A DNA stretch of 64,000 nucleotides. Source: an uncultured Gemmatimonadales bacterium. Its GTDB lineage: Bacteria; Gemmatimonadota; Gemmatimonadetes; Gemmatimonadales; Gemmatimonadaceae. Within the stretch, counting starts at the first letter, position 1. Every line of letters starts with the position of its first letter. The translations under genes were made by a program, and so were the position numbers. The notes beneath the pieces were generated by a model. That model had not been told where the DNA came from, made no database searches, and saw only the letters and a list, made by a program, of their open reading frames with translations. Where the stretch lies: positions 1-64,000 of the forward strand of contig CAWKNZ010000003.1 in NCBI GenBank assembly GCA_963851265.1. The letters run 5' to 3'. Positions 39,911-56,740 of the stretch are shown here, piece after piece.

Positions 39911-39936
39911 TAAACGTTCGGGGGGATCGGGACGTC
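39911..39936 (+). promoter_or_regulatory. ECF-type promoter TAAACG-N16-CGTC
   Basis: TAAAC GTTCGGGGGGATCGGGA CGTC, upstream of the OMP gene. Confidence 0.75.
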
Positions 39937-39983
39937 CAACCTGTACACGCCGTTCACAACGCCGCCCGCATCGAGGCTCCGTC

Positions 39984-40136
39984 ATGCGCCGTCACCCGCA
40001 CTCGCCGTCCGCCGTCCGCCGCGCCGTGCCGCCGACCCTTCCGCGGCTGTGGCTCGCGTCCGCGGTGTGCGAGGCCGCGGTGGCGCTCGGGGCCGCGGGC
40101 GCGTTCTTCGTCACACACAGCACATTTTTCCGATGA
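39984..40136 (+). CDS. Possible 50-aa hydrophobic leader ORF
   Basis: GAGG upstream; stop overlaps the OMP ATG (ATGA). Confidence 0.35.
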   Translation: MRRHPHSPSAVRRAVPPTLPRLWLASAVCEAAVALGAAGAFFVTHSTFFR

Positions 40137-40750
40137 ATCGACTTGCTGCAGTCGCGCTCGTCACGGCTGCCGGCGCGCTCGCCGCGGCGCCGGCAGCCGC
40201 ACACGCCCAGTTCGGGACCGGCCGTACCAGTCCGCTGTCGTTCGGCGTCGAGGGCGGGCTCTCGGTGCCCGCCGGCAACCTCGGCGACAACCTGAACTCC
40301 GGCTACTCCGTGGCCGGCATGGTCGACCTGCACCCCGCACCCGGGCCGCTGTCGCTCCGCCTCGAGGTCGGCTACGACCGCTTCAACTACAAGGACGCGT
40401 ACCAGACGTACGTCGCGCAGATCGCGGGCGGCAACTACTCGTCCAACACGCACTTCCTGCGCGGCACGGCGAACCTCGTCTACCGGTTCTCGAACATGAG
40501 CGGGTTCCGCCCGTACCTCACGGGCGGCGTCGGGGTGTACAACAACAGCGACGGGACCACGCTCCAGTACGGGAACACGACCACCTCGTACAGCTCGGGG
40601 TCGACGACCAAGTTCGGCGTCAACGGCGGCGTGGGGGTCGAGCTGCCGCTCTCGGGGATCACGCCGTTCATCGAGGTGCGCGCGCACGGCGTTCAGACCG
40701 ACTACACGCCGGTGACGTACGTGCCCATCACGGTCGGCTTCCGCTTCTGA
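40133..40750 (+). CDS. Outer membrane beta-barrel protein (8-strand OmpA/OmpW-like)
   Basis: AHA signal cleavage site, RPYLTGGVG, C-terminal VGFRF. Confidence 0.9.
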   Translation: MNRLAAVALVTAAGALAAAPAAAHAQFGTGRTSPLSFGVEGGLSVPAGNLGDNLNSGYSVAGMVDLHPAPGPLSLRLEVGYDRFNYKDAYQTYVAQIAGGNYSSNTHFLRGTANLVYRFSNMSGFRPYLTGGVGVYNNSDGTTLQYGNTTTSYSSGSTTKFGVNGGVGVELPLSGITPFIEVRAHGVQTDYTPVTYVPITVGFRF

Positions 40751-40790
40751 GCGGTCGCCGCCCCGCGCCGTCGGGCGGACCGGCCGGCGC

Positions 40791-42200
40791 CTAACGCGCC
40801 GGCCGGTCCGCCCGGGCGGGGAGCGTCAGGGTGAACGCCGCCCCGCCCTGCGGCGCGGCGCCCGCGGTGAGGTCGCCGCCCAGCGCGCGCGCGACCCGCC
40901 GCGCGGCGGCGAGTCCGACGCCCGCGCCCGCGATGTGTCGCGTGCCCGCGAGCCGCACGGACTCGGCGAACACGCGCTCGTACGCGTCGGGGGGCACGCC
41001 GGGGCCGCTATCGTGCACGGCGAGCCAGCATCCGCCGTCCGGGCCCGGGCCACCGGCGACCTCCACCCGTCCGCCGGCTGGCGTGTACTTGCACGCGTTG
41101 GACAGGAGGTTGCCGAGCACCTGGTGTACGCGGGCAGGGTCGGTGTCTACCCAGCACGGCACGCCGTCGGGGGAGCCGACGCTGCAGGTCAGCGAGAGCC
41201 CCGCGCGGGCCGCGAGGGCGGCGTGTTCGGCGACCGCGTCCCGCGCCAGCGTTTCGAGCGACACGCGGTCCGGGCGTACGGCCAGCCCCCCACCCTCGGC
41301 CATCGCGACCGCGAGCATGTCGTCGACCCCGCCGAGCGTGGCCGTGATGAGCCGATGGCTGCGCGCGAGCGAGTCGGCCTGGCGCGCGTTGACCGGTCCA
41401 AGCAGCCCGTCGGCGACGAGCTCGATGTGCCCGCGAGCGGCGGCGAGCGGATTCCGCAGGTCGTGCGTCACGCCGCGCAGAACGGCCGCGCGCTCGGTGT
41501 GCGCGGTCTCCAACTCGCGGCGCTGCGATTCGGCGAGCGCGGCGAGGCGCGCGGTGCGCAGGCCCGCGCGCGCGAGCATGAGGACGCCCAGGACGGCCAG
41601 GCCGACGAGCACGGCGTCCGTCATCACCTCCGTGTTCCGGGCCCGCGCGATGGCCCGCGTCTCGTGCTCGGTGTAGCCCGAGAGCGCGCCGTCGAGCCCT
41701 TCGGCTGCGTCGAGGGCGGCGAGGCCGCGCGTGTCGACGTGCCCCTCGTGCCAGGCCGCGACGGTCCTCCGGAGGGTGTCGGCGGAGGCGCGGATCCGCT
41801 CGTCGGTGAGCGGCGCGACGAGCGAGTCGACGGCGCGGATGTCGGCCGAGACCGTCGCGTGCGCGAGTCGCCCGCGTTCGCTCGCGTTGGGACCCATCAC
41901 CCGCGCGCCCGTGGCGGCTTCGTACAACTCGACGCCGATTCCCGCCTCGAGATCGTTCACCGCCACGCGGGCGGGGGCGACGTGTTCGGTGAGGCGCCGC
42001 CGCGCCTGGAACGGTCCCACCGACGTCACCAGCGGCACGAGGGCCAGCGCGGCGAGCAGGACGATGACGGTGGCGAACGGAATCCAGAGGGCGCCGGAGC
42101 CGACGGGCCCGGTCGACGCGGGTTCGTGCGTCACGTCGCGCGTCGAGCCGGGCATGGAGGCGAGAAGGGGACCGGGTGGGGCGGAGCGCAGGCGCTGCAC
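40791..42200 (-). CDS. Membrane sensor histidine kinase (orphan)
   Basis: Two TM segments, THDLRNPL, NLLSNACKY, DSGPG, GAGVGL. Confidence 0.9.
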   Translation of the reverse strand: MQRLRSAPPGPLLASMPGSTRDVTHEPASTGPVGSGALWIPFATVIVLLAALALVPLVTSVGPFQARRRLTEHVAPARVAVNDLEAGIGVELYEAATGARVMGPNASERGRLAHATVSADIRAVDSLVAPLTDERIRASADTLRRTVAAWHEGHVDTRGLAALDAAEGLDGALSGYTEHETRAIARARNTEVMTDAVLVGLAVLGVLMLARAGLRTARLAALAESQRRELETAHTERAAVLRGVTHDLRNPLAAARGHIELVADGLLGPVNARQADSLARSHRLITATLGGVDDMLAVAMAEGGGLAVRPDRVSLETLARDAVAEHAALAARAGLSLTCSVGSPDGVPCWVDTDPARVHQVLGNLLSNACKYTPAGGRVEVAGGPGPDGGCWLAVHDSGPGVPPDAYERVFAESVRLAGTRHIAGAGVGLAAARRVARALGGDLTAGAAPQGGAAFTLTLPARADRPAR

Positions 42201-42206
42201 TCGGGA

Positions 42207-42232
42207 GACGCGGGCGTGAGCAGGTTCGTTTA
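42207..42232 (-). promoter_or_regulatory. ECF-type promoter TAAACG-N16-CGTC
   Basis: TAAAC GAACCTGCTCACGCCCG CGTC, ending 6 nt before GTG 42200 (leaderless geometry). Confidence 0.75.
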
Positions 42233-42317
42233 GAACCTACAGGGTGCAGTTGACAGCAGCGGAGGGCGGGGGTTGGATGCGGCGACCATCGCCCGCCCCC
42301 CTCTGCGAGTGTCCGAC

Positions 42318-43241: not shown

Positions 43242-43261
43242 CGGCGTCTCGGGTGAACGGT

Positions 43262-43285
43262 GGACCCCCGCTTTCGCGGGGGCCC
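43262..43285. terminator. Hairpin between convergent genes
   Basis: CCCCCGC-TTTC-GCGGGGG stem-loop. Confidence 0.55.
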
Positions 43286-43302
43286 AGGGTTGTCACTGGC
43301 GG

Positions 43303-44667
43303 CTATTCGTACCGCAGCGCCTGAATGGGGTCGAGCGACGCCGCGCGCCGCGCGGGCCACGTCCCGAAGATCACGCCGACCACGGCGGAGAACGCGAACG
43401 CCATGATCACCGACGCCGGCGCGACCTCGGTGCTCCAGCCGAGGAACGCGTGGAGCGCGATGGCCGTCCCCCAGCCGATGGCGACGCCGATCAGCCCGCC
43501 GAGCGAGCAGAGCACCACGGCCTCGGTGAGAAACTGGAGGAGGATGGTCGCGCGCGAGGCGCCCAACGCCTTGCGCACGCCCACCTCGCGCGTGCGCTCG
43601 GTGACGGAGACGAGCATGATGTTCATGATCCCGATGCCGCCGACGAGCAGCGACACCGTCGCGACGCCGGCGAGCAGGTAGGTGAACACCTGCGTGGTCT
43701 CGCCGAGCGTGTTGAGGAAGTCGGCCTGGTTGCGGATCTGGAAGTCGTCCGGGCGGCCGACCGGCGTGCGATGCGCGCGGCGCATGATCCGCTGCACCTC
43801 GGCCATCGTCTCGGGAATCTGCGCCTCGTTCGGGGCGAGCACCGAGATGGTGCGCAGGTTCTCGGTGCCGAACAGGCCGAAACGCGCCGTCGAGAGCGGG
43901 ACGATGATCTCGTCGTCCGGATCGTTGAAGCCGGTGGCGCCGCCCTTCTGGGCGAACACCCCGATGACGGTGAACGACTGCGCGCCGAGGCGGATGCTCT
44001 GGCCGACGAGCGCCTGGGGGTCGGTGACGCCGAGGTTGCCGGCGGTGGTCGCGCCGACGACGGCGACGCGCTTGCGGCCGGCGTCGTCGGACTGGGTGAA
44101 CATGCGGCCGGCCGCCACGGTGTAGCGGCGTACATCGGCGTAGTTGGGCGACGTGCCGATGACCTGCGTGCTCGCGTTCGCGGTGCCGAACTGCACCTGC
44201 TGCTGCTTCGTCATCTCGGGTTCGACCGCGGCGATGACCTGGGCGCGCTGCGTGAGGAAGTCGGCGTCCTGCACCTTGAGCGGGGCGCGGTCGGTCTGCG
44301 ACGCGACGCCGCCGGTGAACACCTGCCCCGGAATGACGGTGAGGAGCGTGGTGCCGAGTGAGGAGATGCGGTTCTTGACCGCGTCCTGTGCGCCGCGGCC
44401 GAGCGCGAGCATGGCGATCACCGCGCCGACGCCGATGATGATGCCGAGCATCGTGAGGAGCGAGCGCAGCTTGTTGACGCGCAGCGCCTCGAGCGAGACG
44501 CGGAGCACCTCGCCGAACTGCATCCCGCGATGCTTTGCGGGCGGCGGCGGCGCGCTCCGCCGCGGAGCGGGCGACGGCTCGGGCGGCGCCCCGGGCCGGA
44601 CCGCGGGGGTCGGCTCGAGCGCGGGGTCGACCGACGTGTCGCCGGGCGGACGGAGTGTGACGGCCAT
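43303..44667 (-). CDS. MacB-like ABC transporter permease (no fused ATPase)
   Basis: RSLLTMLGIIIGV, GGIGIMNIMLVSVTERTREVG, PARRAASLDPIQALRYE. Confidence 0.95.
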   Translation of the reverse strand: MAVTLRPPGDTSVDPALEPTPAVRPGAPPEPSPAPRRSAPPPPAKHRGMQFGEVLRVSLEALRVNKLRSLLTMLGIIIGVGAVIAMLALGRGAQDAVKNRISSLGTTLLTVIPGQVFTGGVASQTDRAPLKVQDADFLTQRAQVIAAVEPEMTKQQQVQFGTANASTQVIGTSPNYADVRRYTVAAGRMFTQSDDAGRKRVAVVGATTAGNLGVTDPQALVGQSIRLGAQSFTVIGVFAQKGGATGFNDPDDEIIVPLSTARFGLFGTENLRTISVLAPNEAQIPETMAEVQRIMRRAHRTPVGRPDDFQIRNQADFLNTLGETTQVFTYLLAGVATVSLLVGGIGIMNIMLVSVTERTREVGVRKALGASRATILLQFLTEAVVLCSLGGLIGVAIGWGTAIALHAFLGWSTEVAPASVIMAFAFSAVVGVIFGTWPARRAASLDPIQALRYE

Positions 44668-44751
44668 CTCTGAATCTCCTCGAAAGTCGGCGGGGCCGAA
44701 CGGGACCCGCCTTACGCCGTACGCATCACGAACGGACGATGAACGCGCGCC

Positions 44752-46365
44752 TCAGCCGGGCGGTCGTCCCCCGCCGCCACCACCGCCGCCGGTGGCGCCG
44801 CCTCCTGCGCCGCCGCCCTGGCGACCGCCCGAGCCCGACCCGCCGCCGCCGATGCCCGGCAGCGCGGTGCGGCTGCGGATCTGATTCTGGAACTGCGTTC
44901 GCTGCTGCTGCAACACTGCGGCCGAGACCAGCGCGACCTGCTCACCCTCGCTCAGACCGTTGGTGATCTCGACGACGTCGTAGTTGGACAGGCCCACGGT
45001 GACGACCCGCGGAATGAACGCGGGCTGCTGGGCGGTCCCACCCTTCACGAACACCACCGCGTGCGCGCCGGGGACCAGCGCGCCGCCCTGTCCGCTCCCC
45101 GCGCCACCGCGGCCACCGCCCTGGCCGCCGCCGTTGCCGCCGCCCGCACCACCTCCCCCACCACCGCCCGCAGCGCCGCCACCACCGCCACCCGCCCCGC
45201 GGCCGGTGCGCCGCCCGGCGCCTCCGGCCGCGGCTCCCCCGGCCGCGGCGGCGCCCGCCGGTCCCGCCGCGCCACCGCGGCCGCCTACGGTGACGCTCCC
45301 CGGCGTGTCGGCGCCGGCCGCTCCCGCCCCCGCCCCGCGGTTGCCGCGTTGTGCCTGCAGCATCTGGCGCACCGAATCCGCGTCGAGCCCGAGCGCGGTC
45401 GCGGCGCTGGCCGCGTCGCGCCCACTCCGGACCGCGTCGACCGGCACGGCGAGCACGTTGTCGCGCTCCGAGACGAGCACCGACACGTCGGTGTTCATCC
45501 CGGGCATGAGCGCCCGGTCCGGGTTGTCGATGCGGATGAGCACCGGGAAGAACGTGACGCTCTGCTGAACGGTCGCCTGCGGCTCGACCTTCTCGACGAC
45601 GCCCTTGAAGGTGCGGCCGGGGTACGCGTCGACGGTCACGCGCGCCTCCTGTCCCGACCGCACGCGGCCGATGTCGCTCTCGTTGACGAGCGTGCTGTCG
45701 TAGACCGCGCCGAGGTTCGCGACCGTCATCAGGATGGTGCCGCCAGACGGCGAGTTGATCGACGACGCGATGACCTGGCCGAGCGAGACGGGCCGCGTGA
45801 TGATCGTGCCGGCCGACGGCGCGCGGATCACGACGTTCTCGATGCCGATGCGCGCGTTCTCGAGTTGCGACTGCGCGGCGACGAGCGCGGATTGCGCGTT
45901 CGCGTACGCGAGCCGCGCCGCCTCGATGTCGGGCGCGGTGAGCACGCCCTGGCGCAGCAACGCCGTGTCGCGGACGAACTGCGTGCGGGTGATCTGCACC
46001 TGCGAGCGCGTCGCGACCACCGCGGCGTTCGCCTGGTTGAAGTTCGCCGTCGGGATGCGCGGGTCGATGCGCACGAGCACCTGCCCCGCGGTGATCTGCG
46101 ATCCGGTCTGCACCGGCAGCGCGGTGATCTGCCCCGACGTCTGCGAGCGTACGTCGACCGCGTTGATCGGCGTCACCGTGCCGGTCGCCTCGACGTCGAC
46201 GACGATGTTCTGCCGTGCGGCGGGAGCGCTCTGGATGGCCGTCGCCGCGTCGGCCTGCTTCTTGGCGCACGCCCCGGCCAGCGTGGCCGCGGCGGCGAGG
46301 GTGGCGGGCAGCGCGAGCGATCGGCGGCGGGGGCGCGACGGCATGGGCAGGGGCGGGAGGGTCAT
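44752..46365 (-). CDS. MacA-like periplasmic adaptor (lipoprotein) with Gly-rich inserts
   Basis: LAGAC lipobox, IRAPSAG, VNESDIG, VDAYPG, LMPGM, VEITNGLSEGEQV. ATGA overlap with TolC. Confidence 0.92.
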   Translation of the reverse strand: MTLPPLPMPSRPRRRSLALPATLAAAATLAGACAKKQADAATAIQSAPAARQNIVVDVEATGTVTPINAVDVRSQTSGQITALPVQTGSQITAGQVLVRIDPRIPTANFNQANAAVVATRSQVQITRTQFVRDTALLRQGVLTAPDIEAARLAYANAQSALVAAQSQLENARIGIENVVIRAPSAGTIITRPVSLGQVIASSINSPSGGTILMTVANLGAVYDSTLVNESDIGRVRSGQEARVTVDAYPGRTFKGVVEKVEPQATVQQSVTFFPVLIRIDNPDRALMPGMNTDVSVLVSERDNVLAVPVDAVRSGRDAASAATALGLDADSVRQMLQAQRGNRGAGAGAAGADTPGSVTVGGRGGAAGPAGAAAAGGAAAGGAGRRTGRGAGGGGGGAAGGGGGGGAGGGNGGGQGGGRGGAGSGQGGALVPGAHAVVFVKGGTAQQPAFIPRVVTVGLSNYDVVEITNGLSEGEQVALVSAAVLQQQRTQFQNQIRSRTALPGIGGGGSGSGGRQGGGAGGGATGGGGGGGGRPPG

Positions 46366-47687
46366 TGGTTGCCGCCGACGAGCGCTTCGAGCTGCGCCCG
46401 CGCGGACCGCGCGGAGAAGCGCGCCTGCACGAGTCCGAGCCGCGCCTGGGTGAGCGTCGTCTGTGCGGTGAGCACGTCGAGCGAGGTGGCGACGCCGAGC
46501 TGGTATCGCTGGCGCTGCACGCGCAGGTTCTCCTCGCCGGCGGCGATGGCCTGCGCCTGGGTCGCCTCCTGCTGCCCCGCGGTGCGGAGCTCGGTCAGCG
46601 CCTGCACCAGCGTCTGCTGCGCGGCCAGCTCCTGGTCGCGCACCGAGGCCTCGCTGTTGGCGTAGTTGACCTCGGCGTTGGCCACATTGGTGGCCGTGTT
46701 CAGCTGATCGAAGACGGGCAGCGTGATCGCGAGCCGCAGCTGCCCGCTTGGCACGTAGCTCCCCGAGAAGATGTCGAGCGTGCTCGCCGCGCCGGTGAGG
46801 TTGCGGCCGTAGCTGACCGACAGGTTGGGGAAGTACGCGGCGCGTGCGGAGCGCGACTGGTTGCGCGCCTGTTCCACCGACGCCCGCGCCTGCCGCACCG
46901 CGGGCCCCGTGGCGGCGAGGCGTGCGAGCCCGGCGCTGTCGATGGTGAACGCGGTGTCGGGCGGCAACCCGCCGACCGTCGCGCTCACCGGCGCGTCGGA
47001 GCCGATCACGCGGGTGAGGGTCGCGTCGGCGTTGGCCCGGTTGCTGGCGGCGGTGATCGCGGCGAGCTGCGCCTGCCCGACGGCGATCACCGCCTGCAGC
47101 GAGTCGCTGCGCGTGGCGGTCTGGGCGCGGAGCCGCACCGTGGCCAGGGTGAGCTGCGTCTGCGCCTGGGCGAGCTGGTCGCGCGCGGCCGCTTCGGTCT
47201 CGCGTGCGGCCAGCGCGGCGAAGTACTGCTGCTTGACCGAGAGGGCGAGGCTCGCCCCGGTCGACTGGGTGTTTGCGCCGGCGGCGGCCTCCTGCGCCCG
47301 CGCGGCGCGCACGTCGTACACGCGCCTGAAGCCGTCGAACAGGGTGAGCGACGCCGTGAACCCGGTCGTGGTCTGGTACGCGCCGCTCACGATCTCGCCC
47401 GTCTGCGTGTTGACGCGCTGCGTGACGTTGATCTGGCGCGTGAGCCCGCCCGTGACCTGCACGGCGGGGAGGAACTGCGCGTACGCGCCCCGGAGGGCGA
47501 CGCTGCCGGCGCGCACGAGGCCGCGCGCCTGGATGGCGCCGGGCGCGGCCCGCTGCGCCGTCTTGATGGCGTCGGCAAGCGAGATCGGGCGGCCGGTCGC
47601 GCTGTCGGAGGCGAGCGTTCCGGGCGCGGCGACGAGATCGCTCGCGACCGGCGGCAGCGTCGCGGGCAGTTGAGCAGCGAAGAGCAT
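46362..47687 (-). CDS. TolC family outer membrane factor
   Basis: ISLADAIK, LTLFDG, ITLPVF, RYQLGVATSLDVLTAQ. Confidence 0.92.
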   Translation of the reverse strand: MLFAAQLPATLPPVASDLVAAPGTLASDSATGRPISLADAIKTAQRAAPGAIQARGLVRAGSVALRGAYAQFLPAVQVTGGLTRQINVTQRVNTQTGEIVSGAYQTTTGFTASLTLFDGFRRVYDVRAARAQEAAAGANTQSTGASLALSVKQQYFAALAARETEAAARDQLAQAQTQLTLATVRLRAQTATRSDSLQAVIAVGQAQLAAITAASNRANADATLTRVIGSDAPVSATVGGLPPDTAFTIDSAGLARLAATGPAVRQARASVEQARNQSRSARAAYFPNLSVSYGRNLTGAASTLDIFSGSYVPSGQLRLAITLPVFDQLNTATNVANAEVNYANSEASVRDQELAAQQTLVQALTELRTAGQQEATQAQAIAAGEENLRVQRQRYQLGVATSLDVLTAQTTLTQARLGLVQARFSARSARAQLEALVGGNQ

Positions 47688-47748
47688 GGCGGGGGTGCAG
47701 GCGAATGCGGCCGAGCGGTGACGCGCACCGCCCGGCCTTCGACACGTC

Positions 47749-47774
47749 AACGCACGGCGGCGGCGAAGCGTTTA
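47749..47774 (-). promoter_or_regulatory. ECF-type promoter TAAACG-N16-CGTT
   Basis: TAAAC GCTTCGCCGCCGCCGTG CGTT, upstream of tolC-macA-macB. Confidence 0.75.
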
Positions 47775-47806
47775 GCGCCGCCGCCTTCGCACCCGCACCG
47801 TACTGC

Positions 47807-48394
47807 TTACGGCGTGCCCATACGCCCGCCCGACATGCCCCCGCCGCCGCGCGGTGCGCTCCGCGCCGCGCCGCTCAACTGCGCCTCGGCGAACGCGCTG
47901 CGGCGCATGTCGTCCTCCATCTTCGCGGCGCGCGCCCGCTGCTCCGGATTCAGCGCGGCCAGCGCGTCCTCGCGCGCCTGCGCCTCGGCGTCGCGCTGCG
48001 CACGGAGCGCGGCCGCCCGCGCGCGCAGCCGATCGCGCATGGCGACCCGATCGCTGTCGCTCATCGTCGTCCACACGTTCGGATCGCTCGGCGGCTTGAG
48101 CGAGGCGGCGCGCGCGCTGAGCGTGTCGACCGCCGCATCGCGGCGCACCTTGGCCGCGCTCACGCGCCCGACCTGCTCCGGGTTGAGCCCCAGGTCCGCA
48201 CGCCGCTCGAGCACCACGTCGACGAGATTGATGGTGTTCGGATCGCGCTTGGGACGTGCGTCCGCGCTATCCCGGTTGTCGCCGCCGCCGCGCGAACGGC
48301 CACCGCTGAACTGCGCGCGCGCGGGCAGGGCGGCGCCGGCGAGCGCGGCGAACGCGACCACGACCGGGGTCACGCGAGAGAAGCGGTGCGACAT
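47807..48394 (-). CDS. Secreted Spy/CpxP-like (LTxxQ) protein
   Basis: ARA signal cleavage site; LGLNPEQ and ALNPEQ motifs flanking helical segments. Confidence 0.72.
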   Translation of the reverse strand: MSHRFSRVTPVVVAFAALAGAALPARAQFSGGRSRGGGDNRDSADARPKRDPNTINLVDVVLERRADLGLNPEQVGRVSAAKVRRDAAVDTLSARAASLKPPSDPNVWTTMSDSDRVAMRDRLRARAAALRAQRDAEAQAREDALAALNPEQRARAAKMEDDMRRSAFAEAQLSGAARSAPRGGGGMSGGRMGTP

Positions 48395-49599: not shown

Positions 49600-49626
49600 A
49601 CACACGCGTCCGAAACGGGCCCCCTA
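49600..49626 (-). promoter_or_regulatory. Promoter candidate TAGGGG-N15-GTGTGT
   Basis: Identical boxes and spacing to 50295-50321. The TAG is the stop codon of the sigma gene. Confidence 0.7.
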
Positions 49627-50247
49627 CTCCGATCCCTCGTCCCCGCCCGGCAGCCACGGGCCGAGCCGGGCGCGGAGCAAGCGGAGGGCACGCCCCATCT
49701 GCGCCTCGACGGTTTTGGGGGAGATGCCGAGCCGCGCCGCGATGTCGCTGTATCGAAGACCCTCGGCGCGGCTGAGCAGGAACACCCGCCGGCAGCCCGG
49801 GGGGAGCGCCGCGACCGCCGCGTCGATCGCCGCGGCCAGTTCGCCCTCGACGGCCTGGGCGGCGGGGCTCGCGCCGGGCGCTGCCTCGTCGACGGCGAGC
49901 ATCGGAGCCGCGCGCGCCGCGACGCGGGCGTGACGCAGCCGGTTGAGCGCGCGGTTCCGCACCGCGCGGATCAGATAGGGGCCCGGCTCGTCGCCCGTGT
50001 CGAGCGTCGTGCGCCGACGCCACAACTCGAGCAGGACGTCCTGTGCGAGCTCCTCCGCCGCCGCGGCGTCGCGAAGCATCCGGTCGGCGACGCCGACGAG
50101 CGGGGCGTACCAGCGCCGGAAGATCGCGTCGAATGCCGCGGATGGTCCCGCGTCGTCGTCGGCCCCCTCGCGGAGGCGGGCGAGCAGGGCGCGGTCGTCC
50201 TCGATCGGCGAGTCGTCTTCGTCGAGCGGTGAAGCGTCGGAATGCAA
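49624..50247 (-). CDS. ECF sigma factor (FecI-like / Bacteroides-expansion type)
   Basis: AEELAQDVLLELW, YLIRAVRNRALN, LPPGCRRVFLLSR.EGL.Y, SPKTVEAQM. TTG start estimated. Confidence 0.9.
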   Translation of the reverse strand: MHSDASPLDEDDSPIEDDRALLARLREGADDDAGPSAAFDAIFRRWYAPLVGVADRMLRDAAAAEELAQDVLLELWRRRTTLDTGDEPGPYLIRAVRNRALNRLRHARVAARAAPMLAVDEAAPGASPAAQAVEGELAAAIDAAVAALPPGCRRVFLLSRAEGLRYSDIAARLGISPKTVEAQMGRALRLLRARLGPWLPGGDEGSE

Positions 50248-50294
50248 CAGGGCGGACGGAAGAAGGCGACGACCGGCTACCGAGCGGGCCCGCG

Positions 50295-50321
50295 TAGGGG
50301 TAGCGTTCGCCTCCTGTGTGT
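50295..50321 (+). promoter_or_regulatory. Promoter candidate TAGGGG-N15-GTGTGT
   Basis: Ends 8 nt before the FecR ATG (leaderless geometry). Confidence 0.7.
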
Positions 50322-50329
50322 ACAAGGGC

Positions 50330-51664
50330 ATGAACGGTCGCGAACCTTCGTCGAGCGCGTCGCCGGACCGGCCGGTTCCCGAGGGAACCGGGCCGGACTG
50401 GACGGCGATCGCGCGCCTCGTCGCGGGCGAGCCCGCGGCGAACGCCGACGAGCGCGCGCGCGAGGACGCCGCGCGCGCCTGGCTCGCCGCGCGTCCCGAC
50501 GAGGCGGCGCGGGTTGCGGCGCTCGGACGCGTGCTCACGCCGTCCGCCCTCGCCGACGTGTCGCGCGCCGAGGGCGCGGATGGATCGGGGCGTGTGGTCG
50601 ACGTCGAAGCCGCACTGGCGCGGGTACGGCGCGCCGCGCTCCTCGACCGCGCCCCGGCCGCGACCGCTGCGCGCGAGAGCACCGGGCCGCAGATCGCGAT
50701 CCCGCAGCTCACGGGTTCGCAGCTCACGGGTTCGCAGCTCACGGGTCCGCAACTCACGGTCGTGCGCGGCGGAGCGCCCCGCCCGCCCGCCTCCGAACCG
50801 GCGCGTGCCACGCCGCGGCAGCTGGTCATGCCCCGGCCGGTGCCGGCGTGGCGGCGTGCGGCCGGATTGGTGGCAGCCGCGGCGATGCTCACCGCTGGGC
50901 TCGCCTGGTGGCGGACGGGTGGACGGGTCGGCCGCACCCTGACCGATTCGGGCGCGGGCGGTACGACCGTCGCGCAGCACGTGGTGACGGCGGTCGGCGA
51001 GCGCCGGGTGCTCCCCCTCGCCGACGGGTCCGCGGTCGTGCTCGGCCCGGCGAGCACGCTCGACGTGCCGGCCGGCTACGGCGGCGCGGCGCGGCGCGTC
51101 CACCTCACGGGCGAGGCGTATTTCCGCGTCGTGCACGACGACCAGCGCCCGTTCGAGGTGGCGGCGGGCGACGCGATCGTGCACGACGTTGGCACCGCGT
51201 TCGTGGTCCGCGCCGGCGGCACCCCGGGCCAACCGGTCGACGTCGCGGTGACGACGGGAGTCGTCCGCCTGCAGGCGGCGGGTCCGGCGAGCCCGGGTAC
51301 CGAGCGGGACGGTGTGCTCCTCCGCGCTGGCGACCGCGGCCGCGTCGCCGCGGCGACCAGCGGCGCGCCGGCCGCGGCGGCCGTCGTCGCGCGTGGTGCG
51401 GACGTCGGGTCTGACACCGCCTGGACCACCGGCCACCTCGTCTTCCGCGACGCCCCGCTCGGCGACGTGGCCGGCGCGCTGCGTCGCTGGTACGGCATCG
51501 ATCTGCGCTTCGCGGACTCGGCGGTTGCGCAGCGCCACCTCACGGCCACCTTCGCGGGTGAGTCGACCGGCGCGGTGCTGCACGTGATCGAACTCGCCAC
51601 CGGGGCGCGCCTCGATCGCCACGGCGATACCGTCGTGGTGCGGGAGGCCGCGCCGTCCCACTGA
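50330..51664 (+). CDS. FecR-family anti-sigma factor
   Basis: TM segment, LADGS.V.LGPAS, LTGEAYF.V, VGTAF, AWTTG.L.F, LRRWYG. Confidence 0.93.
   Translation: MNGREPSSSASPDRPVPEGTGPDWTAIARLVAGEPAANADERAREDAARAWLAARPDEAARVAALGRVLTPSALADVSRAEGADGSGRVVDVEAALARVRRAALLDRAPAATAARESTGPQIAIPQLTGSQLTGSQLTGPQLTVVRGGAPRPPASEPARATPRQLVMPRPVPAWRRAAGLVAAAAMLTAGLAWWRTGGRVGRTLTDSGAGGTTVAQHVVTAVGERRVLPLADGSAVVLGPASTLDVPAGYGGAARRVHLTGEAYFRVVHDDQRPFEVAAGDAIVHDVGTAFVVRAGGTPGQPVDVAVTTGVVRLQAAGPASPGTERDGVLLRAGDRGRVAAATSGAPAAAAVVARGADVGSDTAWTTGHLVFRDAPLGDVAGALRRWYGIDLRFADSAVAQRHLTATFAGESTGAVLHVIELATGARLDRHGDTVVVREAAPSH
50703..50760 (+). repeat. 15-bp tandem repeat x about 4 in fecR
   Basis: CGCAGCTCACGGGTT units encoding (P/S)QLTG. 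Confidence 0.9.
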
Positions 51665-51669
51665 GCCGC

Positions 51670-54261
51670 GTGCCGTTTTCGGCGACGTCGCGCCGGCGCG
51701 CCCGGCGCCGGCGGGTGCGTGCCGCGCGCGCGGCGCGCGCGACCACGATGCTGGCTCTCGTCGCGGGTCCGGTGAGGGCCGGCGCGCAGGCCGCCGCGTG
51801 CACGCCGGTTTCGCTGCGCGACGCACTCGACCGTATTGCCGCAGCGGCGCACGCACGCCTCTCGTACAGCCGCGAGCTCCTAGACGTCGACCGCGCGGTG
51901 TGCGAGCCCGCGCCCAACGCACCGCCGCTGGCCGCGCTCGACGAACTGCTTCGCGGCACGGGCCTCGAAGCGGTGTCGGTGGGCGGCGGACAGATCGTGC
52001 TGACCCCGTCGGCGCACGCAGCCGGTGACGGGGTCGGATCGGCGTCGCGGCCGGCCGTGCTCGACCGCGTGGTCGTCACTGGGAGTGCAGCCGGCGCGCC
52101 CGCGCGCGGGCTCCCGGTCGCACTCTCGGTCGTCGACGGCACCGCGCTCGGCGCGCGCGCGACCACCGCATTCTCGACGGCGCTCGACGGGGTGATCCCG
52201 GGGCTCTGGGTCTGGACGCAGCCCACGACCACGCTGCTCGCGCGCTACGCCGGCCTGCGCGGCGCGAGCTCGTTCGGCCTCACCACGCCCAAGCTCTACA
52301 TCGATGGGGTGGAGGTCGCGAACCCGCTGTTCGTCACCTCGCTCATGCCCGACCAGATCGAACGGATCGAGGTGATCCGCGGACCGCAGGGGGCCGCGCT
52401 GTACGGGGCGGACGCGATCAGCGGCGTCATCAACATCGTCACGCGACACGACGGCGCGGCCAACGGCGGGCGCGACGTCACGCTTCGCAGCGGCGTGGGC
52501 GCCGCAGCCACGGCGTTCGCGCCGCGCCCCGCGTTCTCGCAGGACCAGGGACTCACGCTGCGCGCGGGCTCTGGCGCGCAAACCGGTGGGCTGTCACTCG
52601 GTTTCGCCACGCTCGGACCGGTCGTTCCGGGACGGACCGCGTACCAGTTCAACGCGCTCGGCAACGCACGCCGCATCGGGCAGAACGGCGTGCTCACGCT
52701 CACCGCGCGACTGGCCGACGCGATCACCCCGCCGAGCGACACCAGCGGACTCGGGTCTGCCGTCGCCGCGTCGCAGGCCATCGCGGCGATGCAGCACATC
52801 ACCCAACTCACGCTCGCGGCCAACCAGGTGCGCACGGCGGGGGGGCGCTGGACGCAGACGTTCACCGCAGGCGTGGACGCGTACCACCTGTCGGGCATGG
52901 CTGCCCCTTCGGTCGCCGCGCTCCCGGCGGGTGCGGACACGACGCAGCAGGGCGCGCGCGGCTCGGCCGCCCGTGGCACGCTCCGGGCGAGCACCACCGC
53001 CACGTACGACCCGGCGCGCGACGTTGCCGTGACCGTGACCGGCATCGCCGACTACGGCCTGCTGCGCGACGGCACGCAATACGACAGCCCCTACGGCATG
53101 TCGCAGTCCGGCGGCACGCCGCTCCCCCAGACCACGCCGACCTCGGGATACGCGCACGGCGGACTCACGACGTCTACGCCGGTGACCTGGCTGAGCACGG
53201 CCGGACTCGTGGGACAGACCACGGTCGCGCTCCGCGACGCGCTGTTCGTCACGGCCGGCCTTCGGGGCGAACGCAACGACGGCTTCACCGCCGCGAGCCG
53301 CACCGCGCTACTCCCGTCGCTCGGGGTGTCGGCGGTGCGGACCCTCGGCGGCGCGACGCTCAAGCTGCGCGGGGCGTACGGCAGCGGGCTCAAGCCGGCC
53401 CGCAACGAGGCGCGCACCCTCTCGTGGCACGCCATCGGCGGCGGCGCACTCCCGTCGTCTCTCGCACCGGAATCGCAGACCGGTGTCGAGGCCGGCGCCG
53501 ACCTGTTCCTGGGCCGCGCCGCGCGCGAGGGCGGGGCGGCGACGACGCTCGCGCTGCACGTCACCGGCTACGACCAACACGCGTCCAACCTGATCCAGCA
53601 GGTCGGACTCGCGCCGAGCGGGCGCGACCACGACCGGCGGTGGACCGAGCCGTCCGCCGACTGGGCGGGCACGTGGTCCGACGCCGATTCGGACGGCCAC
53701 CGCTACGGTCCGAAAGGTCTCGCCTACGAGCTGCAGAACGTCGGGGCGATCAGCAATCGCGGGTTCGAAGGTGAGACGCAGCTCCGTGCGACGCGCCCCG
53801 GCCGCGGCGTGCTGACGTTCGGGGCCACGGTCGCGTACGTCGACAGCCGGGTGACGCACACCGCGGACACCTATAGCGGCGAGCTACGCGCGGGCGACCG
53901 GGTGCTCGAGGTGCCGCGGTGGACGTTCGGCGCCACGGCGAACTGGCGCATTGCGGGCTGGGCCACCACGGTCGGGCTCGCGCGCGCGGCCAACTGGATC
54001 AATTACGACCGCGTTGCACTCGTACAGGCGGTCGGCGCGGGGCGCGCGGATTCGGCGCTCACCGGCCCCGCACTGCGCGCGTACTGGCGCACCTACGCGG
54101 GCGAGACGCGGCTCCGTGCCGACATCCTGCGCGAACTCACGCGCGGCCTCTCAGTGGTCCTGACCGGTGAAAACCTGCTCGGTCAGCAGCGCGGCGAGCC
54201 GGACAATCTCACCACGCTTCCCGGGCGGACCTTCACCGCCGGCGTCCGCGCCCGCTTCTGA
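51670..54261 (+). CDS. TonB-dependent receptor with N-terminal signalling (STN-like) domain
   Basis: LDRVVVTG TonB box, IERIEVIRGPQGAALYG..GVINIVT plug, LAPE, C-terminal VRARF. Confidence 0.93.
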   Translation: MPFSATSRRRARRRRVRAARAARATTMLALVAGPVRAGAQAAACTPVSLRDALDRIAAAAHARLSYSRELLDVDRAVCEPAPNAPPLAALDELLRGTGLEAVSVGGGQIVLTPSAHAAGDGVGSASRPAVLDRVVVTGSAAGAPARGLPVALSVVDGTALGARATTAFSTALDGVIPGLWVWTQPTTTLLARYAGLRGASSFGLTTPKLYIDGVEVANPLFVTSLMPDQIERIEVIRGPQGAALYGADAISGVINIVTRHDGAANGGRDVTLRSGVGAAATAFAPRPAFSQDQGLTLRAGSGAQTGGLSLGFATLGPVVPGRTAYQFNALGNARRIGQNGVLTLTARLADAITPPSDTSGLGSAVAASQAIAAMQHITQLTLAANQVRTAGGRWTQTFTAGVDAYHLSGMAAPSVAALPAGADTTQQGARGSAARGTLRASTTATYDPARDVAVTVTGIADYGLLRDGTQYDSPYGMSQSGGTPLPQTTPTSGYAHGGLTTSTPVTWLSTAGLVGQTTVALRDALFVTAGLRGERNDGFTAASRTALLPSLGVSAVRTLGGATLKLRGAYGSGLKPARNEARTLSWHAIGGGALPSSLAPESQTGVEAGADLFLGRAAREGGAATTLALHVTGYDQHASNLIQQVGLAPSGRDHDRRWTEPSADWAGTWSDADSDGHRYGPKGLAYELQNVGAISNRGFEGETQLRATRPGRGVLTFGATVAYVDSRVTHTADTYSGELRAGDRVLEVPRWTFGATANWRIAGWATTVGLARAANWINYDRVALVQAVGAGRADSALTGPALRAYWRTYAGETRLRADILRELTRGLSVVLTGENLLGQQRGEPDNLTTLPGRTFTAGVRARF

Positions 54262-54375
54262 GGAGCGAGCGACCGGCGCGGCCCTCGCGATTCGCGTGGG
54301 GCCGGACCGCTGCGCGGATCGCCGCGTCCGGCAGTCCCATCACACCACCGCCTGTCGACGCGTCTGACCGCCCGC

Positions 54376-54864
54376 TTACGGCCGCGGTCCTCTCGCGGGA
54401 TCGGCGCCGGGCCCGCCCGGGCCGCCGCCCGGGCCGCCCGGGCCGCCCGGGCCGAACCGGCCGCGCATCCGCCGCTCGTGCTCGGCGTGCGCCGAGTCGA
54501 ACCGGACACGCTGCTCGGGCGTGAGCACCGCGCGGACGTCCGCGCGCGTCGAGTCGAGGATCGCCCGCAGCGACTGTCCGGGGCCGCGCCAGAACCCGTC
54601 GATCTGTCCGCGGCGCGCCACGAGCACACTGTCGATCCGCGTGCGCTGTGGCGCACTCAAGCCGTAGCTCGCGATCGGTCCGCCGTCGAGCAACATCTCG
54701 TCGCGTGGCCCGCGGCGTGGGCCGCGTGCGCCGAATCGCGTTCCGACTCCCCAACCCGTGCCTGCCCCCGCCAGGAAGACGAGCAGCATCGCGAGCGCGG
54801 CGAGCCACCGCGTGTTCGGCGCCGCCGGTGACGGCCCCGCGTCCCCACCGTCGGCTAGGGTCAC
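54376..54864 (-). CDS. Membrane-anchored LTxxQ (Spy/ZraP-like) protein
   Basis: LLVFLAGAG TM segment, GLSAPQ and VLTPEQ motifs; GTGA overlap with the upstream gene. Confidence 0.75.
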   Translation of the reverse strand: MTLADGGDAGPSPAAPNTRWLAALAMLLVFLAGAGTGWGVGTRFGARGPRRGPRDEMLLDGGPIASYGLSAPQRTRIDSVLVARRGQIDGFWRGPGQSLRAILDSTRADVRAVLTPEQRVRFDSAHAEHERRMRGRFGPGGPGGPGGGPGGPGADPARGPRP

Positions 54865-55376
54865 GGAGCGCCCCCGAGCCCGATCGCGCGGCCGAGCGCG
54901 TCGACGCTCGGCGCACGCGCCTGGTCGGGCCACTGCGCGCTCGGATCGTGGAGACTGAGCGCCTGGACCGCCGACGCGTCGCTGAGTTCCTGCCCGGTCG
55001 CGGAGCCGGGGCCCGTTCCCAAGCGCGCGAGTCCCACGGCCAGCAGCCCGGCCGCCGCCGCCGCGAACAGGGCCGGGCGGAGCGCCCGCGCGAAGAGAGG
55101 GGTCAGCTCGTCGCGTCCGCGCGCGCGACCCGCGACGCGCCCGGCCGCGTGCGTCGTGCGGACGACGACGAGCGGCGGACGGCCGCCCCGAAGCGCGGCG
55201 CGGCGGGTGAGTTCGGCCGAAGCCGCGGCCTCGATCCGCCGCGCGAGCGCGTCGTACTCCGCCGCGCTGCGCGCGTACGCGCCGAGTTCGGGAGGCGGCG
55301 GCTCGGCCGCGAGTTGCGCGTCCGTCACCGGATCGAGGTCCGTAGGGGCCATGTCGTCGGCTCTGTGGTCCGTCAT
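54861..55376 (-). CDS. Single-TM putative anti-sigma factor
   Basis: ATGA-coupled to the ECF sigma gene; one TM segment. Confidence 0.6.
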   Translation of the reverse strand: MTDHRADDMAPTDLDPVTDAQLAAEPPPPELGAYARSAAEYDALARRIEAAASAELTRRAALRGGRPPLVVVRTTHAAGRVAGRARGRDELTPLFARALRPALFAAAAAGLLAVGLARLGTGPGSATGQELSDASAVQALSLHDPSAQWPDQARAPSVDALGRAIGLGGAP

Positions 55377-56011
55377 CGGTCAGCTCCGCGCCGCCACTCG
55401 GCGCTCAACCGCTCGCGGAGTGCGCGCCGCGCCCAGAACAGGTGCGCACGCACGGTCCCCTCGGCGATCCCTAGATGGTCTCCGATCTCGCGGTGGGTCC
55501 ACCCCTCCACGTCGTGCAGCAGTACCACGGACCGGCGCGTCTCGGTCAGCGACGCCAGCGCGGCGCGCAGATGGTCGCGCGCGTCGGCCCGTTCGGCCGC
55601 GTCGAGCACGCCCCCACCGGTCGACGCGGCCAGCGCGCCCGAGAGGCTCGCCGCGCGCTCGTCGTCGTCGAGCGATTCCGCGCGGCGCACGCGGGCACGG
55701 CGCCGCAGGTCGATGGCGCGGTTGCGCACGATGACGAGGAGCCAGGGGCGGAATTTCTCCGCCGGGCGGCACTCCTCGATGCGCGTCAGCGCGGTCACGA
55801 ACGCGTCCTGCGCGCAGTCGTCGGCGTCGGTGGGGTCGCCGAGTACCGACAGGGCGGCACCGCGTGCCGCGGCGAGGTGCCGCCGCACGAGGAGGCCGAA
55901 CGCGCCGCGGTCGCCCGCCACCGCCCCCTCGACGAGGACGGCGTCGGAGACGTCCGCGGGCGGCGCGCCCGCGGGAGGAACGTCCGCGGCAAACGCGTCA
56001 GCGGCAGCCAC
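55373..56011 (-). CDS. ECF sigma factor (RpoE/SigW-like)
   Basis: GDRGAFGLLV, DADDCAQDAF, FRPWLLVIVRN, EIGDHLGIAEGTVRAHL. Confidence 0.93.
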   Translation of the reverse strand: MAAADAFAADVPPAGAPPADVSDAVLVEGAVAGDRGAFGLLVRRHLAAARGAALSVLGDPTDADDCAQDAFVTALTRIEECRPAEKFRPWLLVIVRNRAIDLRRRARVRRAESLDDDERAASLSGALAASTGGGVLDAAERADARDHLRAALASLTETRRSVVLLHDVEGWTHREIGDHLGIAEGTVRAHLFWARRALRERLSAEWRRGADR

Positions 56012-56041
56012 CGCTTGCGAGACGGGCTGCGCGGAGCGCGG

Positions 56042-56515
56042 TCAGCCGTGCCCGGGGCCGCCCATCCCGCCCTGGCCGCCCTCGCGCATCCGCTGCTGGC
56101 CCTGCTCGCGCATCTTGGCCAGGTTGGCGTCGAACGTCTTCTGCTGATCGGGCGTGAGGATGGCGCGCATGGCCGTGCGCTGCGACTCCATCTCGTGGCG
56201 GAACTGCATCATCGTCGCGCTGTCCGGAGGGCCGCCCTGCATCATCTGGCTGCGCATGGCCTGCATGCGCGTGCGGCCGGCGGCCTGCACCGAGTCGAGC
56301 TGCGCGCGCTGCGCGTCGCTCAACGTGATGCCCTGCATCAGCATGCCCATGCCGCGCATGCCCATGCCGCCGCGGCCCGGACCGCCGGCCGGCGGCTGGC
56401 CCGCTGGGGGCTGGTCGCCTGCCTGCGCGGCAAGCACGGCCGGCGCGGCGCAGCAGATCGAGGCGATCGCCGCGGCGAACGCGACGCGGTGGGGAAAACG
56501 GAGGATCGAGATCAT
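56042..56515 (-). CDS. Spy/CpxP family periplasmic protein
   Basis: Signal peptide; ITLSDAQ and ILTPDQQ motifs; Met/Gln-rich helices. Confidence 0.85.
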   Translation of the reverse strand: MISILRFPHRVAFAAAIASICCAAPAVLAAQAGDQPPAGQPPAGGPGRGGMGMRGMGMLMQGITLSDAQRAQLDSVQAAGRTRMQAMRSQMMQGGPPDSATMMQFRHEMESQRTAMRAILTPDQQKTFDANLAKMREQGQQRMREGGQGGMGGPGHG

Positions 56516-56624
56516 GGCGGGACTCGCGAAAGCTACGGGTGGGGGTCGCACCGCAGCGAAGGACCGTGGCGTGCTGCGCGACGGCGGAGCGCTCGAGGGT
56601 GCGGTCGAGCGCTCCTGTCGAGAA

Positions 56625-56650
56625 GACGCGGAGCCGTCGGACAGCGTTTA
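56625..56650 (-). promoter_or_regulatory. ECF-type promoter TAAACG-N16-CGTC
   Basis: TAAAC GCTGTCCGACGGCTCCG CGTC, upstream of the spy-ECF operon. Confidence 0.78.
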
Positions 56651-56715
56651 AGCGTGGCCTTCAACCACGAGTTCGATCGCGGCGTTCGAGAGGTGCGGCC
56701 ACCGGCCGTCGCGGG

Positions 56716-56740
56716 TAAACGCGGGCCGACGGTGGGGCGT
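56716..56740 (+). promoter_or_regulatory. ECF-type promoter TAAACG-N16-CGT
   Basis: TAAAC GCGGGCCGACGGTGGGG CGT, divergent from the previous one, upstream of the Oar-like gene. Confidence 0.72.

Follow-up and report, generated by a model that had tools for sequence, protein, structure and literature searches.

The window analysed here, a 64,000-nt stretch of a contig from an uncultured Gemmatimonadales bacterium, contains a cluster of envelope and export genes, five copies of a promoter-like motif and the genes of two ECF sigma factors. The gene labels given in an earlier note, which had been read from the letters alone, were upheld by a Pfam search. The features of the cluster are the following:

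39911..39935, + strand: promoter-like site 1, TAAACG-N16-CGTC, ahead of the 50-codon ORF and the small beta-barrel gene
39984..40136, + strand: 50-codon ORF, its stop overlapping the start of the barrel gene
40133..40750, + strand: small outer-membrane beta-barrel protein (PF13505, E 6e-10)
40791..42155, - strand: orphan sensor histidine kinase (HisKA, HATPase_c; H-box; hydrophobic spans 25-43 and 177-195)
42208..42232, - strand: promoter-like site 2, ahead of the orphan kinase gene
43303..44667, - strand: MacB-type permease without ATPase domain (MacB_PCD and FtsX only)
44752..46365, - strand: MacA-type periplasmic adaptor (TIGR01730 above cutoff)
46362..47687, - strand: TolC-type outer-membrane channel (PF02321, E 1e-45)
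47750..47774, - strand: promoter-like site 3, ahead of tolC-macA-macB
47807..48394, - strand: exported Spy/LTXXQ-like protein (Atlas matches of 0.90-0.92 to LTXXQ clusters)
49624..50247, - strand: ECF2, FecI-like sigma (TIGR02985 137.9, cutoff 126.4)
50318..54261, + strand: FecR-type anti-sigma and STN-plug TonB-dependent receptor (FecR, FecR_C, STN, Plug), the cell-surface signalling unit of ECF2
54376..54864, - strand: membrane-anchored Spy/CpxP-like protein, gene 3 of the ECF1 triad (best solved match Spy)
54861..55376, - strand: putative anti-sigma (from alignment and topology, a single membrane span between a conserved cytoplasmic helix and a periplasmic tail that is also conserved; no cysteine)
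55373..56011, - strand: ECF1, likely reader of the sites (212 aa; PF04542 and PF08281 above cutoff; TIGR02937 98.2 vs 42.9)
56042..56515, - strand: Spy-like periplasmic chaperone, gene 1 of the ECF1 operon (PF07813 37.1, cutoff 24.3)
56626..56650, - strand: promoter-like site 4, putatively autoregulatory, ahead of the operon spy-ECF1-anti-sigma-54376
56716..56740, + strand: promoter-like site 5, divergent from site 4, ahead of the Oar-like barrel gene
56881..60759, + strand: Oar-like large beta-barrel (carboxypeptidase-like domain, plug, barrel; PF25183, PF13620)

By Pfam and TIGR02937 criteria, ECF1 is an ECF (group 4) sigma factor. Its sigma-4 segment G185-W193 is invariant or nearly so across 29 aligned homologues and, among the 15 sigma-like proteins of the source genome, is present in ECF1 only. 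The putative anti-sigma gave no match in Pfam, NCBIfam or PDB. The anchored 54376-54864 protein had no match in Pfam; Atlas placed it near LTXXQ/Metal_resist clusters (0.88-0.91), its match to Spy was weak (E 0.005) and its family has no invariant His or Met. A Spy-like segment was also found at the C-terminus of the Oar-like barrel (about 60400-60678), where PF07813 scored 24.0, just under the cutoff of 24.3. This tail is kept in 117 of 120 homologues and appears to be a character of the barrel family, and a PDB sequence search with it returned nothing useful. The 50-codon ORF has a counterpart in genome G004 (70% over 37 residues) and none in G001. Inside the cluster span there is also a unit that the earlier note left unmentioned, formed by ECF2, FecR and the TonB-dependent receptor (49624-54261). 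In the source genome no site was found upstream of ECF2, and the Spy/LTXXQ-like gene at 47807-48394 has no site of its own.

The pattern TAAACG-N16-CGT was confirmed at the five sites, with a 16-base spacer at each. Within the window every TAAACG carries CGT at this spacing (5/5), as had been noticed by eye, while elsewhere in the genome only 4 of 104 do. One hundred dinucleotide shuffles of the window gave a mean of 0.14 and a maximum of 2 such sites, vs the 5 observed. The genome-wide scan proposed in the earlier note found 109 TAAACG, 9 of them with CGT at 16 bases, and 5 of these lie in one 17 kb stretch. When nine sites were placed at random, five fell within 17 kb in none of 200,000 trials, a figure that overstates the clustering because the motif was picked from the same window. 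Independent gene calls also bore out that all five sites are intergenic and aimed into a gene, at a distance of 48-140 bases. Across the genome, CGT-bearing TAAACG amounts to 2/61 inside genes vs 7/48 between genes, and the seven intergenic sites all point into a gene; thus the motif is not equally common inside genes, the outcome that the earlier note had named as a refutation. The exact sites C8:272333 and C8:72124 fall within genes, and C2:1666829 is aimed at a doubtful 57-codon ORF. A sixth site, distal to the cluster, is conserved within the genus. The earlier note had suggested looking ahead of the second Oar-like gene, which starts near contig position 66054; no site was present there. 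A candidate sixth promoter of the cluster at 39956 (- strand, TGAACG-N16-CGTC, towards an esterase) was rejected, being absent from G001 and G004, and a search of a plasmid collection returned no match. Site 1 is the weakest profile match (rank 9 in one ranking, outside the top 22 in another), and site 3 overlaps both a GC hairpin and, on the opposite strand, a TCAACG-N16-CGTT site at 47747.

Conservation was concentrated in the boxes. At orthologous places the boxes were kept in 5/5 cases in G001 and 4/4 in G004, and in G003 at the three cluster targets seen, while the spacers between them had a mean identity of 51% over 15 pairs from three same-genus genomes. Site 1 is kept in G001 and G004, site 2 in G001 and G003, and site 3 in G001 (as TAAACA) and G004. 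The same holds ahead of ECF1's own operon, where two boxes at fixed spacing are conserved while the spacer varies. TAAAC[ACG]-N16-CGT was found upstream in 29 of 33 ECF1-like loci and in none at six other spacings; these loci were deduplicated and non-self, and each had 950 bases upstream. Loci L035-L114 were for the most part distant ECFs, of which L036 alone was used. A profile trained without the source genus ranked four window sites 1, 2, 3 and 5 in 4.6 Mb. It is extremely improbable that the motif is an ordinary transcription factor binding site and not a promoter: AACG-N16-CGTT is palindromic and site 3 has that form, but four of the five sites are non-palindromic, all five are directed into genes at 48-140 bases, the motif tracks one sigma lineage, and AAC and CGT boxes at such spacing match the ECF promoters described in PMC7826278.

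Which sigma reads the sites was addressed through the distribution of the motif. TAAACG stood ahead of the Oar homologue in 5/5 genomes with ECF1 vs 1/25 others, and TAAAC ahead of tolC in 4/6 vs 0/24. FecI-like ECF2 (49624-50247) lies among the sites and has orthologues in G001, G004, G059, G118 and G108, the last with a site about 140 bases ahead of the ECF2 copy, and its Asn84 also accepts CG (0.40). Nevertheless, seven of eight ECF2-like genes have no site ahead of them, the sites persist in four g84 genomes whose matches to ECF2 reach 32-44% or are lacking, and residue 171 in the sigma-4 domain of ECF2 is Glu, whereas Arg or Lys would be expected for C at -31; we consider ECF2 a highly improbable reader.

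A second sigma required closer comparison. The source genome has one copy of a sister ECF (contig C2, 464011-464667), whose three-gene layout is that of ECF1 and which is near-universal in the family (146 of 151 genomes). The two sigmas share the -10 box, the spacer, Arg171 and Asp84. In the published ECF code Arg171 prefers C at -31 (0.88) and Asp84 prefers CG (0.62), and ECF1 agrees with both. They differ at the residues reading -35/-34, A-H-W in ECF1 vs S-D-H in the sister, and in the corresponding promoter letters, TA vs YC. These are the positions to which the code assigns -34 (172 and 173) and -35 (176) (PMC7776599 Table S1). The published test found no base preference for Ala172, and the proposal that His173 alone gives A at -34 was ruled out by loci L118, L124, L149, L006 and L009. 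Among the four ECF1-like loci in which the site is absent, two (genus g60) are preceded by GCAACG or CTAACG despite having A-H at 172-173, so the residue rule for -35/-34 is not strict.

Alternatively, and in keeping with the shared -10 box, spacer, Arg171 and Asp84, the sister ECF could read the sites alone or mostly, TAAAC being a tolerated variant of YCAAC and ECF1 one target. Sites 47774 and 56650 score 13.8 and 11.8 on the sister's profile, and tolC follows the sister ECF in 82 of 101 genomes. Genome G056 (no ECF1 match; 80% complete) has TAAACG ahead of its Oar gene, and other ECF1-less genomes have CAAACG, TTAACG or GCAACG there, a variation at -35/-34 from which the sister ECF may tolerate TA. 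Against this, sister-ECF loci had CAAC-N16-CGT[AT] in 42/42 and a TAAAC-type site in 0/42, C at -34 was found in 30/30 of the sister's own promoters in the family, and the four window sites that rank highest score 10-13 bits lower on its profile. Since ECF1 loci keep TAAAC in 29/33, and TA would not stay fixed in one lineage only under a tolerant reader, we regard the sister as an improbable main reader.

Overall, the five predicted promoters are quite likely read by ECF1, which would switch on its own operon, TolC-MacA-MacB, two barrels and the kinase. The earlier proposal that the sigma at 55373-56011 drives a clustered regulon holds as to the ECF-type promoter, the envelope and export targets and the likely reading by ECF1; the regulon is not purely clustered, because one distal site is conserved. 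From the target families we infer a role in envelope stress. TAAAC(G/A) would act as the -35 box and CGT as the -10 box, with transcription starting a few bases beyond CGT. By means of its conserved cytoplasmic helix, the one-span 54861-55376 protein may tether ECF1 to the inner membrane, and the anchored 54376-54864 protein may report periplasmic stress to the anti-sigma's tail. ECF1 released in this way would give positive feedback through site 4, damped by the co-made anti-sigma. Envelope protein that has misfolded, or a compound acting on the membrane, would be the most likely signal, rather than metal, because neither His nor Met is invariant in the 54376 protein; for lack of invariant ligands, metal sensing as in CnrX was rejected. 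ECF1 and its sister would divide the work with limited cross-talk, because reading residues and promoter letters both differ at -35/-34.

The earlier note had included the kinase in a cascade, in which ECF1 would induce the orphan kinase and, through it, a further set of genes. In favour of this, the kinase possesses an H-box as well as a periplasmic portion, and site 2 ahead of it is kept in two further genomes; a variant in which ECF1 induces ECF2 finds some backing in the G108 site. However, both the kinase gene and its site are gone from the syntenic region of G004, the kinase was not found adjacent in the ECF1 loci of other genera examined, and a crude motif scan placed the nearest receiver-like gene 13 kb off, with no partner or output identified. 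The cascade is thus unsupported, and we hold it to be unlikely.

The history of the two sigmas was also considered. Because copies from two other families fall within the sister clade, the idea that ECF1 is a recent duplicate of the sister ECF was rejected. ECF1 is probably old and has been retained in a patchy manner, and its sister relation to the near-universal ECF is weak in the tree (90/86). In genomes with W-type ECF1, tolC is detached from the sister ECF in 6/6 and preceded by TAAAC in 4, these six representing 3 genera only; detached tolC also occurs in 12 genomes without ECF1, and tolC in G059 and G118 is preceded by TTAACG, an exact match to neither sigma's motif. In genomes with W-type ECF1, the TAAAC version of the promoter seems mostly to stand ahead of tolC-macA-macB and of the Oar-like gene. 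We tentatively suggest, as a doubtful extension, that a single envelope-stress programme of Gemmatimonadaceae is run by sister sigmas that can stand in for each other, pump and barrel having been rewired from YCAAC to TAAAC where the patchy ECF1 is present, by a two-base change matching a change of three recognition residues, and that the barrel's Spy-like tail could pair with the anchored partner, so that sigma release would depend on the condition of an outer-membrane channel with no FecR involved. If true, this would be a natural regulon handover legible across genomes.

Known ECF groups were compared through their published descriptions. In PMC7826278, ECF290 and ECF111 modules combine an ECF with a Pfam-less one-span anti-sigma at +1, as is 54861-55376 here, and with a heavy-metal-resistance/LTXXQ protein at +2 (membrane-bound in ECF290), a place taken here by the 54376 protein with its weak Spy match; ECF290 shares CGT at -10. 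However, Proteobacteria make up 98% of ECF290, and its -35 box is ACGG, where TAAAC(G/A) is found here, and the ECF111 promoter, TTGAACCT/GTCTAAA, is not the one seen here. For neither group does the available part of PMC7826278 list Gemmatimonadetes or describe a TolC-MacAB or Oar-like barrel regulon. ECF281 differs in its zinc-finger anti-sigma and GGAACTT/GTCTAA promoter, the anti-sigma here being without cysteine. ECF25, which holds a Gemmatimonadetes subgroup (s4), is described with zinc-binding-domain, DUF4384 or DUF4349 anti-sigmas, none of which was found here; its promoter GGAAC/GTC is given for s1 and s2. CnrYXH of Cupriavidus metallidurans (ECF291) resembles the predicted system at this locus in that a short anti-sigma in the membrane holds the ECF, the periplasmic helical partner is anchored, and the sigma controls itself and a neighbouring tripartite efflux pump; it differs in gene order (-2 for the anti-sigma and -1 for the metal sensor, vs +1 and +2 here), in the metal ligands of its sensor, which the 54376 partner lacks as invariant residues, and in its promoter and RND pump, the pump here being MacAB-type. 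Bacillus ECF30/ECF31-type sigmas have TGAAAC or TGAAC at -35, CGT(C) at -10 and a cell-envelope role (PMC7826278), but are described from Firmicutes only, with a different anti-sigma. The SigW model scored 65.9 with ECF1, vs a cutoff of 243. SigW controls the MacAB-like yknWXYZ. In E. coli, RpoE-RseA-RseB and the Cpx/Bae-controlled Spy follow the same three-gene logic of sigma, anti-sigma and periplasmic partner, with envelope targets. ECF1 scored 62.9 vs 236 for RpoE, the promoter is another one, and the regulon here is small and mostly local.

The general design (ECF, anti-sigma, Spy-like protein, TolC-MacAB) is of a known, ordinary kind. What would be new are the two related promoters in Gemmatimonadota, the way in which targets seem to be divided among the sister sigmas, and the barrel family with a Spy-like tail; literature searches on Gemmatimonadota ECF promoters found no paper. 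Gene regulation in these common soil bacteria has hardly been described, and the analysis yields two precise promoter motifs, likely readers and a short target list. The ECF1/sister pair offers a natural experiment on the published recognition code (172, 173, 176) and bears on the movement of targets between sister sigmas.

Regarding the pump, outer channel, adaptor and MacB permease were all identified in tolC-macA-macB, so the parts of a MacAB-TolC pump are present. A fused or co-encoded ATPase was found neither in the source cluster nor in loci L309-L314, and one is co-encoded in L136. Separate ATPases are described for the MacAB family in PMC5985334, and the best candidate in trans is C2:1727991, with 80% to the L136 ATPase.

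A motif search of the window located TAAACG-N16-CGT at 39911(+), 42232(-), 47774(-), 56650(-) and 56716(+) (sites 1 to 5), the same five sites, strands and spacing on which an earlier note, made from the sequence alone, had proposed a five-promoter regulon of an ECF sigma. TAAACG occurs five times in the window and, as that note had also claimed, every copy carries CGT at N16; shuffled window sequence contained 0.14 sites on average. Genome-wide (4.6 Mb), TAAACG occurs 109 times and 9 copies have CGT at this spacing, 5 in the window and 4 of the 104 elsewhere (Fisher P = 1e-6, an inflated value, since this window itself supplied the motif). Using our own gene calls, produced by a self-trained model and not by standard annotation, CGT accompanied 2 of 61 genic hexamers versus 7 of 48 intergenic ones, all seven aimed into a gene, so that the motif is not equally common inside genes. 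A start codon lies 48-140 bases downstream of each of the five sites. The genes of the cluster are the following, with families assigned by Pfam/NCBIfam except for the one-span and anchored proteins:

40133-40750, small beta-barrel
40791-42155, membrane kinase
43303-47687, macB-macA-tolC, without ATPase
49624-54261, second ECF (ECF2, 49624-50247, -), FecR and STN receptor
56515 down to 54376, operon of spy, ECF1 (the proposed reader, 55373-56011, -), a one-span protein and an anchored protein
56881-60759, large Oar-like barrel

The proteins encoded at 54376 and 47807 had no Pfam match and are similar to LTXXQ/Metal_resist clusters in the Atlas; for the 54376 family, Spy was the best solved match (E = 0.005). 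Both the cytoplasmic helix and the periplasmic tail of the one-span protein are conserved among 23 aligned sequences, its sequence contains no cysteine and no relative was found among solved structures; by position and shape it is a putative anti-sigma. Several other elements accompany these genes. A 50-codon ORF with a hydrophobic end (39984-40136), whose stop overlaps the barrel start, was found in G004 and not in G001, two genomes of the same genus. Three near-identical 21-base repeats (56824-56880) lie directly 5′ of the Oar-like gene start. Downstream of ECF2, a lipoprotein-like gene of no known family (48481-49494) has homologues adjoining spy-ECF1 in locus L141 and ECF2 in locus L315. 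Two overlapping genes at 33352-37238 encode what we take, from their translations, to be an RsbQ-like hydrolase and a PAS/GAF diguanylate-cyclase-like protein.

ECF1 orthologues (84-89% identity) were present in 3 of the 4 other genomes of the genus. G001 keeps all five sites, with the tolC site as TAAACA; G004 keeps 4/4, the kinase and its site being missing together; and in G003 sites were seen at spy, Oar and the kinase. Mean spacer identity to this genome was 51% (15 pairs). A sixth, distal TAAACG-N16-CGT (C2:1643413-1643437), upstream of a gene presumably encoding a fumarylacetoacetate-hydrolase-family protein, is kept in all three of these genomes and absent from G059, G118 and G108.

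Homologue names assign the genome to the Gemmatimonadaceae. ECF1-like genes occur in 18 of 401 family genomes, covering five genera, and further ones in metagenome loci. Out of 69 non-self loci, 40 had 950 bases upstream, leaving 33 once near-duplicates were removed; the 29 shorter loci were excluded. TAAAC[ACG]-N16-CGT was found upstream in 29 of the 33, the exceptions being L118, L124, L147 and L149, and spacings of 13-15 or 17-19 gave 0/33. Operons of spy, Oar and tolC in other genera have this motif upstream as well. In extended form its consensus reads TAAAC(G/A)-N14-(C/T)G-CGT-N-T. Applied to the genome, a profile from 53 non-self sites placed four window sites on top, the distal site at rank 5 and 39911 at rank 9; once this genus was dropped from the training set, the four took ranks 1, 2, 3 and 5, the distal site took rank 9 and 39911 fell below 22. 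The promoter motif is real and well conserved and ECF1 is very probably its reader, as the earlier note had proposed; the regulon would be a small one, for envelope and export, of known design.

The other sigma factor of the cluster, ECF2, scores above the TIGR02985 cutoff and neighbours FecR. No site was found upstream of ECF2 here, in G001, in G004 or in four copies of G059 and G118; only in G108 does one lie ∼140 bases before the orthologue (G108:C262:1254-1278). Four genomes of genus g84 keep the motif without a close ECF2. Therefore, ECF2 is unlikely to be the reader; in G108 it may instead be one of the targets, which would link one sigma to another. Induction of the kinase from its site is plausible. 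The cascade that the earlier note built on it found no support: the kinase site is conserved in three genomes, all of one genus, and no partner was identified.

The established part of this system comprises the sites, their conservation and their co-occurrence with ECF1, which we read as the regulator. Beyond it, the one-span protein would hold ECF1 until periplasmic stress, sensed via the anchored Spy-like partner, released it; ECF1 would then amplify its own synthesis through site 4 and induce the chaperone, the pump and two barrels. The partner has no invariant His or Met, and therefore protein or membrane damage is a more likely signal than metal. The tolC-macA-macB genes lack an ATPase here and in six relatives' loci (L309-L314), whereas in L136 the ATPase heads the operon. 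The pump ATPase must be supplied from elsewhere; the closest genome match to that of L136 (80%) is C2:1727991, in a second pump operon, and separate ATPases are described in the text consulted of PMC5985334. Both Oar-like barrels end, past the last predicted strand, in a Spy/LTXXQ-like tail (60400-60678 and 62266-62700). The tail of the large barrel contains two LTxxQ motifs and scores 24.0 for PF07813 (cutoff 24.3); among 120 Oar homologues PF07813 was flagged in 26 and the closing motif was present in 117. The tail profile weakly matches the 47807 protein (E = 0.006). We infer the fold of the tail and the side of the membrane on which it would lie from sequence.

A sister ECF (C2:464011-464667), 44% identical to ECF1, has a like layout of ECF, one-span protein and Spy-like protein (C2:462851-464704) behind the promoter CCAACG-N16-CGTT. 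It is present in 146 of 151 family genomes, and (T/C/A)CAAC(G/A)-N16-CGT(T/A) lies upstream in 30/30 loci, this genome's among them. In deduplicated sister loci, including 13 from two other families, CAAC was found in 42/42 and TAAAC in 0/42. According to the portion of PMC7776599 consulted, RpoE position 176 corresponds to -35, 172 and 173 to -34, 171 to -31 and 84 to -13/-12; Asp84 prefers CG (0.62), Arg171 prefers C (0.88) and Ala172 showed no base preference. When RpoE numbering is carried over according to the distances between these residues, ECF1 reads R-A-H-x-F-W versus R-S-D-x-H-H in the sister, Asp84 and Arg171 being common to both; the promoters therefore differ where the proteins differ. 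The residue-to-promoter rule is loose, with V-H-H and TAAACG in g84, and A-H-H and GCAACG or CTAACG in genus g60. A tree was built from 54 picked loci plus seven further ECFs of this genome (61 rows); in it the two lineages are sister groups with weak support (90/86), and their split predates the family.

The top intergenic matches of the sister profile fall upstream of the sister operon, of a sigma-70-family gene (C2:664166) and of genes for long exported proteins (C9:28102, C7:413667 and C3:234437). Within 47741-47810, site 3 lies inside a GC hairpin directly 3′ of the 47807 gene stop, with a good sister-type site on the opposite strand (47747 +, score 18.5), antisense into that gene. Locus L312 (G159:C11) has two triads in tandem: directly before the sister ECF-tolC operon stands one that combines an ECF of a third type, a Spy-like gene and a homologue of Oar.

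The tolC orthologue, present in 101 genomes, lies ≤1.5 kb behind the sister ECF in 82 and elsewhere in 18, one genome having no sister match. The 18 include all six genomes with W-type ECF1 (Trp at the -35-reading position); the other 12 lack it, and contig breaks account for some. Among the best 30 tolC loci, TAAAC was upstream in 4/6 ECF1 genomes, the remaining two having TTAACG, versus 0/24 others. Among the best 30 Oar loci, TAAACG was found in 5/5 ECF1 genomes versus 1/25 others; a genome counts as lacking ECF1 when no match was obtained at E 1e-46. Several of the 25 have NCAAC, CAAAC or TTAAC variants, and the exception, G056, is 80% complete and yielded no match to ECF1. The unpublished genomes G011, G054, G152 and G313 are single rows in these tallies, and no claim hangs on them. 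The same targets are apparently split between the sister sigmas, a pattern among kin genomes, the six coming from three genera, that does not amount to a statistical test.

Paralogous ECFs with shared targets are described in the text consulted of PMC8103513. In that of PMC7826278, ECF290 and ECF111 are defined by the layout of ECF, anti-sigma and heavy-metal/LTXXQ protein, which ECF281 and ECF291 also show; compared by their descriptions, each is mismatched to ECF1 by promoter, taxon or anti-sigma type. The same text names TAAAC for two groups, ECF03, with TTAAACC and a TC-type -10, and ECF272, with TTTAAACCTTT, CG(A/T)CTAA and a RskA-like anti-sigma, and places Gemmatimonadetes in five ECF groups. 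Literature searches returned nothing relevant on Gemmatimonadota or Gemmatimonas ECF promoters or regulons or on LTXXQ fused with TonB-dependent proteins; for ECF281 the classification paper alone came up. The supplements of PMC7776599 other than Datasets S1, S2 and part of S6 contain no 'Gemmat', and the motif may already have been predicted computationally. The regulon design itself is already known; the novelty lies in the lineage, in a pair of promoters with a two-base difference, in the way the two sisters apparently divide the same targets and in the barrel with its tail.
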